Part shown: in pieces, positions 4,774-12,735 of the stretch | How the letters are laid out: each line of letters starts with the position of its first letter | Numbering within the stretch: position 1 is the stretch's first letter | Sequence record: OQ473814.1 | Length of the DNA: 12,735 bases | Direction: 5' to 3' (one strand) | Made by a program: the position numbers and the translations under genes | The notes under the pieces: model-generated | What the model was told of the DNA's origin: nothing | The model's input: the letters and a program-made list of their open reading frames with translations, nothing else | Databases searched by the model: none

Positions 4774-5264
4774 AAATTGAGATTGATCACGATAACGCGG
4801 ACAATAACCCCGCGGAGGGGGAGGAGGTTGAGGTAGTTGAGGAGGTAACTAAGACTGAACCTACGCCCGCGACTCCTCAACCTCAACCCGTAACTCCTCA
4901 ACCCGCCCCCGTGGATCCCCGCGTGGATCAACTTGAGAGTAGGATAGCTCAACTAGAGAATTCCTTTACTCAACTTACGGACGCCCTTAACAAGTACTTT
5001 AATGCTCAAGGGCAGGGGCAGGTACCTCAAGGACAAGGGCAGGGAGGGATGGAATGGTTAGGTCCCGTAGCTCAACTCCTAGGTAGTCTCTTTCAATCCC
5101 GCGGTGGTAGTGATCAACTGACTAGCGTGTTGTTAGGGCTAGCGATCGATAACCTAAAATCTAGTGCAGAATTGAACAGGGCGGTGGCGGGGGCGGTAGT
5201 AAAGAAACTTTTAGGCGAGGCTATCGCTAGTGAACTAGGAGAGGTGGTTGTAAGTCATGAGTAA
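4770..5264 (+). CDS. Acidic/Pro-rich coiled-coil protein with amphipathic C-terminal helices, 164 aa (possible scaffold or assembly factor)
   Basis: ATGA overlap; E/P-rich N-terminus, VDQLESRIAQLENS heptads, QG-rich linker, WLGPVAQLLGSLF helix. Confidence 0.85.
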   Translation: MKIEIDHDNADNNPAEGEEVEVVEEVTKTEPTPATPQPQPVTPQPAPVDPRVDQLESRIAQLENSFTQLTDALNKYFNAQGQGQVPQGQGQGGMEWLGPVAQLLGSLFQSRGGSDQLTSVLLGLAIDNLKSSAELNRAVAGAVVKKLLGEAIASELGEVVVSHE

Positions 5265-5448
5265 CGTAAGTAAGAAAGTGGATGAAATAACGAGAAAGAT
5301 GCAAGTCTACGAGTTCGTTAAGAGCCTCGCCCTAACACTAGGTATCCCCTTCCCGGACGCTATGGTTAAGGCGTACATAATGAGAACCGACATCAACAAG
5401 ATTAATGCGATCATAGAGAAGACTAGGGAGTGGATTAAGCATGTCTGA
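5257..5448 (+). CDS. Small helical hypothetical protein, 63 aa
   Basis: 8-nt overlaps with both neighbours. Confidence 0.8.
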   Translation: MSNVSKKVDEITRKMQVYEFVKSLALTLGIPFPDAMVKAYIMRTDINKINAIIEKTREWIKHV

Positions 5449-5764
5449 CGTAGACGTGAAATACGTTATCGACCACGAACTTGAGGAGGACCTTAAGTTT
5501 CGCGTACTTGTTGAGGAGTACCGCAGAAAGTTCATAGCGGAAATAAGGGAGGAGTGTCCGGACCTTACCCCGCAGTGTTGGGGACCTCAAGTTTGGGCTA
5601 GATTTCACGCTCTAGCCCTCGCAGTACCATGTCCGGCGTGCAGTAGTGAGGCTCAAGCATTCCTTAGTTTCTTCCACGATTACGTGAACAAACACCGCGG
5701 TAAGCCGTTATACGCCCCCGTAAACTACGAGAATGTCAAAAAGGAAATATGCCGTAATGCGTAA
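5441..5764 (+). CDS. Miniature Erv1/Alr-family (FAD-dependent) sulfhydryl oxidase, 107 aa
   Basis: All family hallmarks in order: WGPxxWxxFH (47-56), PCxxC (CPAC 64-67; nt 5630-5641), HDxVN (79-83, the HNxVN motif), GKP (87-89). Confidence 0.85.
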   Translation: MSDVDVKYVIDHELEEDLKFRVLVEEYRRKFIAEIREECPDLTPQCWGPQVWARFHALALAVPCPACSSEAQAFLSFFHDYVNKHRGKPLYAPVNYENVKKEICRNA

Positions 5765-5804: not shown

Positions 5805-6089
5805 ATGAAAGCAAAAAATCCAATCGCGTCTCAACTCAGTTCAGCCGTAAGGGATGCATGGGAAAGCCCTGAAGGTATGTCAATGAGGGAAAGAATGAGT
5901 GCACAGGCTTACGATTCCAACTTTGCGAATTGTCTAAGATCCGGAGCTAGGAGGAATGAGGCTTTTGCGGACGTGGTAAAGAGGTGCATGGCACAGACCG
6001 GGTACAATATCGACCTCGCTCAAGATTGGGGCTCTCCTAAGGAAAACGCTCCTAGGGTACAGGTACTGTCAGCTAGGGCAAGACTCTAG
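5805..6089 (+). CDS. Helical, mildly basic protein, 94 aa; candidate virion core/nucleoprotein
   Basis: First gene of the 3-gene block ending in the capsid-like gene; Arg/Lys-rich; two Cys. The function is inferred. Confidence 0.8.
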   Translation: MKAKNPIASQLSSAVRDAWESPEGMSMRERMSAQAYDSNFANCLRSGARRNEAFADVVKRCMAQTGYNIDLAQDWGSPKENAPRVQVLSARARL

Positions 6090-6481: not shown

Positions 6482-6487
6482 AGGTGA
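6481..6487 (+). promoter_or_regulatory. Shine-Dalgarno GAGGTGA for the capsid gene
   Basis: Perfect archaeal SD 5 nt before ATG 6493; the track's GTG start at 6484 lies inside this SD. Confidence 0.85.
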
Positions 6488-6492
6488 TTAAG

Positions 6493-6909
6493 ATGCCCAA
6501 AACCTATTACAGGACGTACCAGATTCAATTTAACGTAGGAGCTTCCCTACCCGCGAATTCCATAATCGCCGGGACTTTCGTAAATCTCGCGAACGGTAAG
6601 ACTGAGTCACAACTACAGGCTCCGTCAAACCAGACGTGGGATATCGTGGACATCTATATCAGGTCTACTAGCGACGATCCCCTAGACGCGACCGTAACAT
6701 TCACTAGGGACGACGTGAATAACCTGATAACGACCGATCCACTCAGTGCCCTAGTGGTAAGCAACCCATCAAGACCTAGGTACCCCGCTATCCGTCTCAA
6801 CCCCGGACAAAGACTTAGTGCGACCGCGACAACCCTCGCGACTAACGGGACCTCCGCCGTAACCGACTACGTGTTTGTAAAGGTGCAGGTAACCGACTAC
6901 TCCGCTTAA
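6493..6909 (+). CDS. Probable major capsid protein, single jelly-roll-like, 138 aa
   Basis: Best SD in the genome and T7 terminator just after; all-beta alternating pattern (TYQIQF, WDIVDIYI, ATVTFT, IRLNPGQRLSAT, YVFVKVQV); no TM helix. Confidence 0.7.
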   Translation: MPKTYYRTYQIQFNVGASLPANSIIAGTFVNLANGKTESQLQAPSNQTWDIVDIYIRSTSDDPLDATVTFTRDDVNNLITTDPLSALVVSNPSRPRYPAIRLNPGQRLSATATTLATNGTSAVTDYVFVKVQVTDYSA

Positions 6910-12573: not shown

Positions 12574-12735
12574 GGCTTCTCTCCTACGCCCTCCTCTCCT
12601 ACGCCCCTCGACCACGCTCCGCTCACGTGGCTCTCCGCGACCGCGGGCGTCCGCCATGCCACGCGCTGCCCTTCGCGACCCTCACGCCTCGCCTCGCCTC
12701 GCGAGACGCCGACGCGAGACGCTGCCGCGAGACGC
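12574..12735 (-). repeat. Right inverted terminal repeat (162 bp)
   Basis: Exact reverse complement of 40-201; carries one perfect 13-bp unit plus the two variant units. Confidence 0.98.

Follow-up and report, generated by a model that had tools for sequence, protein, structure and literature searches.

Sulfhydryl oxidases of the Erv/ALR family fold as an up-down helical bundle in which helices 1 and 4 carry the Trp, His and Asn residues and helices 2 and 3 carry a CxxC motif at their turn; the FAD contacts are a Trp and a His on helix 1, a His and two Asn on helix 4, and a KxxF/Y motif (PMC3616962, excerpt). In yeast Erv1 the FAD contacts are Trp95, Tyr128, His162, Lys171 and Phe174, and the cellular enzymes are dimers of complete bundles in which each chain has its own FAD (PMC4721541, excerpt). 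The psi-Erv/Erv pseudo-dimers of QSOX and baculovirus Ac92 illustrate how the module evolves by duplication and fusion (excerpts of PMC3616962 and PMC11654684, the latter describing no half-size Erv). Stand-alone viral Ervs include ASFV pB119L (PDB 3gwl), the Erv1/Alr proteins of the Nucleocytoviricota (PF04777) and poxvirus E10 (PF04805). Whereas QSOX and Ac92 double a whole domain, the protein described here, named half-Erv, is half a domain.

The window analysed is the complete linear genome of MTIV3 (Metallosphaera turreted icosahedral virus 3), an archaeal hot-spring virus (12,735 bp; PMC10101205, excerpt), and ends in 162-nt terminal inverted repeats, within which a 13-nt tandem repeat lies at 1-75 and 12700-12735. 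The encoded half-Erv is 100% identical to the protein of OP999013 (tblastn). Its ORF starts within the end of a 63-aa ORF, the overlap making translational coupling of the two likely, and is the first gene of the virion block c105 - b88 - a109 - c137 (Table 1). The order c153 - a40 - c105 - b88 - a109 - c137 is common to MTIV1, MTIV3 and both SPV3/STIV3 modules. By profile match (PHROG 32547) and gene order the MTIV3 protein is the direct orthologue of MTIV1 c105, with which it shares 43% identity over 69 residues. MTIV1 c105 and the SPV3 ORF36 and ORF9 homologues carry a structural annotation, the virion association of c105 being a GenBank label. In the SPV3/STIV3 record (OQ473816) a complete MTIV-like structural module is present twice, both times with a half-Erv (L002:3011-4339 and L002:14383-15673); the record may join two viruses.

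Table 1 Features of the half-Erv locus in the MTIV3 genome.
Feature	Position	Strand	Basis
63-aa helical ORF overlapping the half-Erv ORF; judged not required to complete the site	5257..5448	+	Lacks Cys; 8 of 76 loci have a homologue upstream
Shine-Dalgarno-like GGGAGTGG, 7 nt 5' of the half-Erv ATG	5426..5433	+	Sequence; putative function
Half-Erv ORF, 107 aa, ATG start	5441..5764	+	ORF9 in OP999013 (MTIV3); homologous to structural protein c105 of MTIV1; PHROG 32547, E=5.4e-17
N-terminal helix 12-38, clade-specific, outside the conserved core	5474..5554	+	AlphaFold; at most 25 residues before G48 in 68 of 140 members (best 150 of 281)
C39-x6-C46 pair, MTIV clade only	5555..5578	+	Conservation; putative placement beside partner C64 in the predicted dimer, from 47-62/63 coupling
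Helix A (44-61) with G48, W52 and H56; Erv helix 1, in the predicted partner chain helix 2	5570..5623	+	AlphaFold, conservation, profile match
C64-P-A-C67 at the hairpin turn, predicted redox-active disulfide	5630..5641	+	CxxC-x11-H in 142 of 150 (best 150 of 281); aligned to Erv CxxC
Helix B (65-85) with H79, D80 and N83; Erv helix 4, in the predicted partner chain helix 3	5633..5695	+	AlphaFold, conservation, profile match
K88-x-x-Y91, Erv KxxF/Y phosphate/adenine motif	5702..5713	+	Conservation; motif defined in PMC3616962 (excerpt)
Helix C (93-106), packed against helix B; corresponds to the fifth helix of Ervs	5717..5758	+	AlphaFold; couplings 77-103, 73-99 and 77-95
Virion protein of the next gene, 94 aa, homologous to b88; contains C43 and C61; candidate substrate	5805..6089	+	Both Cys in 6 of 6 aligned copies; PHROG 28831; putative substrate role

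Downstream, positions 6484-6909 are likely to encode the major capsid protein, with a weak match to Pfam SPV1_VP4 (E=0.0068) that falls below the cut-off. The 11 ORFs between 5805 and 11888 contain 2, 0, 0, 4, 0, 0, 2, 0, 8, 0 and 0 Cys residues; all counts are even, four out of four Cys-bearing ORFs being too few to serve as evidence. The segment 5257-6481 is present at a share of 0.94-1.00 in 17 sequencing runs from about 8-9 unrelated studies, which suggests carry-over or a sequencing spike and not wide occurrence; these matches are to contigs only and give no evidence on expression or habitat.

The first-pass annotation read this ORF as a miniaturised Erv1/Alr sulfhydryl oxidase, and its homology to Erv/ALR is now practically certain. 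All nine matches of the MTIV3 protein alone to the PDB at E≤10 were Erv/ALR proteins (best E=0.057), as were the top 15 of 22 matches of a 111-sequence family profile (best E=2.5e-4), which aligned in three collinear blocks. HHalign of the half-Erv profile with 113 full-length viral Ervs gave P=99.0 and E=5.9e-18 with two long gaps, corresponding to 23 and 17-24 residues missing from the half-Erv; the 113 distinct sequences, from 120 loci, had been selected by the pattern WGPxxWxxxH, which leaves the PDB searches as the independent result. The MTIV3 protein itself matched no Pfam family at E≤1, and thus reached the cut-off of neither Erv1/Alr (PF04777) nor poxvirus E10 (PF04805). Among its 111 relatives, Evr1_Alr (36 sequences, best E=0.00097) and Pox_E10 (27 sequences) were the two commonest families at the same threshold, all matches being weak; in the MTIV-like members Pox_E10 was matched weakly by 13 of 27 (best E=0.0046). 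Searches with the single MTIV3 sequence returned a near-identical protein only, two further loci from these searches (L005 and L009) being spurious, and the ESM Atlas gave no usable match for it. PF04777 was also searched for in one genome together with 14 controls; it had no match in any of them, which makes the search uninformative.

The residues on which the first reading was built are in place (W47 G48 P49, W52, H56, C64-P-A-C67, H79 D80 Y81 V82 N83, G87 K88 P89, Y91, and C39, C46 and C104), and a degenerate form of the motif matched once in the window and in none of 200 shuffles. The short spacers were also correctly noted: H56 and C64 are 8 residues apart, compared with 31 in 112 of the 120 full-length viral Ervs, and C67 and H79 are 12 apart, compared with 29-36 in 120 of 120. 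The protein is, however, not an isolated miniaturised copy. A 5-sequence alignment led to 27 proteins, and a profile of 27 sequences (26 of these plus the window protein), searched against 1.84 billion representatives at E≤0.001 with clustering at 50% identity, matched 281 clusters, so that it is one of at least 281 with the same architecture.

Conservation was counted in the best 150 of these 281 clusters, to which every count out of 150 or 140 given here refers, the 140 being the sequences anchored on W52, C64 and C67. W-x11-CxxC occurs in 140 of the 150, with a 3-4 residue insertion in 9, and CxxC-x11-H in 142. Among the 140 anchored sequences G48 is kept in 139, H79 in 133, D80 in 139, N83 in 133, K88 in 119 and Tyr, Phe or His at position 91 in 94. 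The motif is HDxxN and not HNxxN, with Asp in 139 of the 140. Position 56 is His in 89, Glu in 32 and Asp in 8 of the 140; MTIV1 c105, which is annotated only as structural, differs from the MTIV3 protein in having Asp there. All 10 Erv FAD/catalytic positions are kept in 74 of the 140 and at least nine in 124, if Glu or Asp at 56, Asp at 80 and Arg at 88 are allowed. The conserved positions are those of the published FAD contacts, with counterparts of yeast Erv1 Trp95, His162, Lys171, Phe174 and Cys130/Cys133 and with local spacings as in that enzyme (His162-Lys171-Phe174 and Tyr128-Cys130).

The same Cys, His and Asp/Glu residues could instead bind a metal, as a zinc or iron centre across the dimer, in place of FAD. 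We consider this quite unlikely, although position 56 alternates between His, Glu and Asp, the motif is HD, 11 of 27 MTIV members have weak Anti-TRAP matches and a hydrogenase small chain was matched at E 0.25. Within a single helix of the structural model, 12-16 residues separate C64/C67 from H79/D80, and G48, W52, N83, K88 and the aromatic residue at 91 correspond to Erv FAD contacts at yeast Erv1 spacings (PMC4721541, excerpt), not to metal ligands. The His on helix 1 pairs with the His on helix 4 in Ervs (PMC3616962, excerpt), a role that Asp or Glu could take.

With a deep alignment, AlphaFold modelled the monomer at a pLDDT of 94.7 with helices at 12-38, 44-61, 65-85 and 93-106; the conserved part is one helical hairpin, which together with the two long gaps bears out the reduced fold that had been proposed. 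Folding of the single sequence reached a pLDDT of 62, and a Foldseek search with that model returned nothing. In the Foldseek search of the PDB, ASFV pB119L, Erv2 and ALR ranked first, with pB119L as the top match, but weakly (best E=0.12, rmsd about 10-11 Å). In BFVD the first match was the MTIV c105-like A0A221ZTP7, and most of those after it, at E≥0.07, were viral sulfhydryl oxidases; a wide VIA structure search had no Erv among the top 50 matches listed, all of them generic helices. Rigid re-alignment to 2hj3 covered 55 of 100 residues (rmsd 2.5 Å, 26% identity, Z 3.5), distributed from one end of the Erv chain to the other, and about 55 residues superpose on the cellular Erv1, Erv2 and ALR structures (1jr8, 1oqc, 2hj3 and 3w4y) at 2.5-3.2 Å. 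The Z of 3.1-3.5 of these superpositions lies within the common background; a modelled match of this size fits half a bundle but is not significant alone.

In the model the CxxC is at the hairpin turn and W52, H79 and N83 are at the open end, at least 12 residues of helix away, so that a monomer would be unable to place its disulfide on the flavin. It is hardly credible that the long N-terminal helix 12-38 of the MTIV3 protein replaces the lost helices in a monomeric mini-fold, since no more than 15 residues precede G48 in 21 and no more than 25 in 68 of the 140 members, and an extra helix would not shift the CxxC to the Trp/His end. Given the layout of the Erv bundle, two hairpins packed antiparallel reproduce it. 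In ALR, both helix 1 and helix 2 end in His-x6-Pro, and from this, before the coupling analysis, a two-fold axis was predicted to lie close to residue 55, at an index sum of 110.

Mean-field couplings were computed from 269 sequences with invariant columns dropped, leaving 1349 pairs. The pairs W47-V62 and W47-P63 (sums 109 and 110) hold ranks 4 and 7 among the 1349, or 2 and 4, with median ranks of 4 and 2.5 in 30 subsamples. Their ranks are 2 and 3 at 60% dereplication (130 sequences), 1 and 2 at 50% (80 sequences, a set in which two intra-hairpin control pairs fall to ranks 122 and 333), and 2 and 4 without the Trp62 clade (228 sequences). Residues 47 and 62/63 are 15-16 apart at opposite ends of one helix, about 22 Å on an ideal helix, and their coupling therefore points to an antiparallel homodimer in which a four-helix bundle would be rebuilt with two symmetric sites; the index sum of 109-110 is the helix 1-helix 2 register expected from ALR. 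The intra-hairpin couplings 59-71, 55-75 and 62-68 (sum 130) rank alongside the W47 pairs, and helix B-C pairs were also recovered. Column-shuffled nulls, which ignore relatedness, reach z 3.2-4.3; two of the ten surpassed the z of 4.2 that W47-P63 has in the full set. Coupling between helix B and its symmetry mate is not clear (71-78 at rank 19-46; 68-82 and 71-82 at about rank 700).

In the half-Erv numbering, the strongest couplings of full-length Ervs (107 sequences, Neff 84) are those of helices 1-4 and 2-3 at sums of 126-134 and of helices 3-4 at 149, while helix 1-2 couplings are weaker, at sums of 108-116. When the half-Erv profile was slid along the full-length Erv over 70 offsets, helix A matched helix 1 best (22.5 bits) and helix 2 second (10.3 bits), the third match scoring 2.4, and residues 68-74 matched helix 3 and then helix 4 at the predicted offsets. 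Without the Trp and the xP cap the match of helix A to helix 2 drops to rank 3 of 82, so it rests partly on the xP cap.

The first-pass annotation had offered two ways of completing the FAD site, oligomerisation and the product of the overlapping 63-aa ORF. The former is favoured by the 47-62/63 couplings, the superposition on half of an Erv and the half-fold homology, and the half-Erv is very probably an antiparallel homodimer, as predicted from sequence; a CxxC beside the flavin site, impossible in the monomer model, would be restored in such a dimer. An accessory protein has a parallel in poxviruses, where A2.5 assists E10, and the two MTIV3 genes overlap and are probably coupled, a related small ORF lying upstream in all MTIV-like genomes examined. 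We nevertheless give completion by the 63-aa protein very little credence, because it contains no Cys and hence no CxxC to bring to the flavin end, and a homologue is detectable upstream in only 8 of 76 family loci.

In the predicted homodimer, chain A would supply helices A and B in the roles of Erv helices 1 and 4, with the Trp, His, Asp/Asn, Lys and aromatic residue, and chain B the same two helices, inverted, as helices 2 and 3, bringing its CxxC to the flavin of chain A; by symmetry there would be two such sites. Electrons would pass from substrate thiols, possibly via C39/C46, to C64/C67, then to FAD and to O2 or another acceptor. Candidate thiols are C43 and C61 of the next gene product, whose invariance in 6 of 6 copies makes it a plausible substrate. 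C39 and C46 would sit at the mouth of the partner CxxC and could form a shuttle or a structural disulfide. They had been proposed as a distal shuttle pair, but this does not generalise: they are at least 90% conserved in the 27 MTIV-like proteins, yet absent from SPV3 ORF9, and Cys46 is found in 9 of the 140 wider members; C104, which had been listed with them, is not conserved in the 27. Two Cys occur in the 12 residues before G48 in 15 of the 140, and 64 have none either there or in the 46 residues after K88, which indicates that a shuttle is optional.

Taken overall, it is probable that the half-Erv is an FAD-dependent oxidase, an antiparallel homodimer with FAD at both ends that would form disulfides in virion proteins. 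The protein would likely be packaged in the virion, like c105, and is likely a virion-associated thiol oxidase. A mainly structural role, in which an Erv-derived dimer serves as an inner virion protein and cargo-loading tag and flavin chemistry is dispensable, seems unlikely. It would fit the structural annotation of the MTIV1 and SPV3 homologues, the start of the domain within the first 61 residues in 27 of 28 members longer than 200 aa, and P0165, in which SxxS replaces CxxC. Moreover, 11 of these 28 carry ArdC-N/MPTase, ddrB-ParB, JAB or SNF2 domains, which are known from polyvalent proteins; these, in phages, are taken to be virion-packaged (PMC5512222, an excerpt of which makes no mention of Erv). 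On such long proteins the half-Erv domain may double as a packaging tag, as its N-terminal position suggests. However, the retention of CxxC-x11-H in 142 of 150 members and, in most, of all the cofactor contacts (best 150 of 281) would be difficult to account for if no cofactor were bound, and catalysis need not conflict with packaging. Poxvirus E10 combines the two.

Virus-like contigs and Thermoplasmata chromosomes both encode half-Ervs, and the domain also forms the N-terminus of polyvalent proteins. When JGI metagenomes (25 of 64 parts) were scanned with the motif, at least 118 loci came up, 116 of them with a true member. One clade accounts for 49 of the 116 and has stable chromosomal neighbourhoods, with neighbours labelled Thermoplasmata archaeon at the two loci checked. 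Its members (among them L058:9857-10330, L031, L053 on a 378-kb contig, and L092) have a Trp before Pro-CxxC, a second CxxC downstream and an ambiguous start codon, and are possibly a domesticated copy. Many of the remaining loci are on contigs of unannotated genes (21 mapped), several with an MTIV-like order: L041, L071 and L074 have a c153-like gene upstream (E 0.001-0.008) and L094 has a homologue of the c137 capsid protein downstream (E=2e-7), profile comparison of the MTIV neighbours with distant loci being otherwise mostly negative. Genes of 275-294 aa follow the half-Erv on some unannotated contigs (L041:3785-4666, L046, L052:2385-3263, L074:2449-3273 and L083:2077-2928). The 294-aa neighbour in L041 gave an Atlas lead to a cluster in which 23% of members have a PM2 P2 double jelly-roll domain, which Pfam, PHROGs and a PDB profile search did not confirm; it is possible that these contigs represent unrecognised virus groups absent from IMG/VR. 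The IMG/VR motif scan gave no match with GK included and 11 without it, of which 4 are real, all MTIV-like, and 7 are chance matches; tblastn against GenBank phages found only the MTIV1, MTIV3 and SPV3/STIV3 records.

The long proteins with an N-terminal half-Erv and one of the four domain types named above are P0143, P0169, P0111, P0172, P0171 (labelled as a Dehalococcoidia MAG), P0170, P0165, P0114, P0142, P0168 and P0159. P0130 and P0186 come from diplonemid transcriptomes (EukProt) and resemble the L023/L032 clade; a co-cultured virus or contamination is possible. In L076:2676-3056 and L084:2558-2935 the half-Erv lies beside a gene with a PatG domain and not in a virion module.

The half-Erv shares with the stand-alone viral Ervs the elements WGPxxW, hydrophobic-PCxxC, HxxVN-x3-GK/KP and KxxF/Y in the same order, but is shorter by the two missing segments, forms one hairpin instead of a four-helix bundle, has HD for HN and would share its active site between two chains. 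Unlike the cellular enzymes, it lacks the CX16C structural disulfide and the C-terminal Arg-Trp. Of the features that define Erv1/Alr proteins, the MTIV3 protein has the Trp and His of helix 1 (W52, H56), a CxxC at the start of a helix (C64/C67, helix 65-85) and KxxF/Y after helix 4 (K88, Y91); of the helix-4 His and two Asn it keeps H79 and N83, the first Asn being Asp. E70 and A71 stand where the His and Phe follow the CxxC on helix 3. At these positions the family has His in 30 and Gly/Ala in 124 of the 140, and the 113 full-length viral Ervs have His in 90, Phe/Tyr in 81 and Ala in 28, so that a small residue at CxxC+4 is also found in 28 of the 113. The model has two core helices plus helix C, and not a four-helix bundle plus fifth helix in one chain. 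The half-Erv falls outside strict Erv1/Alr membership (single-chain fold, HN, Pfam cut-off), yet would most likely function like an Erv.

A half-size variant of the Erv module is apparently new to the literature. We found no Erv in archaeal viruses and no hairpin-sized Erv there, although the original MTIV paper and the MTIV3/MTIV4 supplements could hold such an annotation; the main texts of the MTIV3 paper (PMC10101205) and the MTIV4 preprint mention neither Erv1, sulfhydryl, disulfide nor oxidase. In a tree of 56 shared columns, unrooted, without cellular Ervs and with a pattern-selected full-length set, 98 half-Ervs and 42 full viral Ervs form two clades with support 1.0. Either a full Erv suffered two deletions and became a domain-swapped dimer, which radiated afterwards, or the ancestral form is the symmetric dimer. 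The second is mildly favoured by the pseudo-symmetry, because a derived hairpin must meet both roles at once. We put forward tentatively, as a scenario with less than an even chance, that the half-Erv is what survives of a symmetric form ancestral to the Erv/ALR fold, namely a homodimeric flavin thiol oxidase with two sites, belonging to prokaryotic jelly-roll viruses. The single-chain Erv would then have arisen by nesting a hairpin in a hairpin, Erv would have passed to giant viruses from prokaryotic viral ancestors and perhaps from viruses to eukaryotes, and the domain would double as a virion-loading tag for anti-defence cargo.

The half-Erv provides a predicted function for an unannotated virion protein of the cultured viruses MTIV1 and MTIV3, and since these encode it the claim is directly testable. 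It is also a marker gene for virus-like contigs largely missing from IMG/VR, and its core of roughly 60 residues, originating from an enrichment at 75 °C and pH 3, would make a thermostable disulfide catalyst of very small size. It exposes a two-fold pseudo-symmetry in Erv, and at least 281 half-fold clusters on prokaryotic virus-like contigs and archaeal chromosomes reopen the question of the origin of Erv. If it is an oxidase, viruses of prokaryotes would have their own disulfide catalyst, a possible ancestor of the eukaryotic enzyme.
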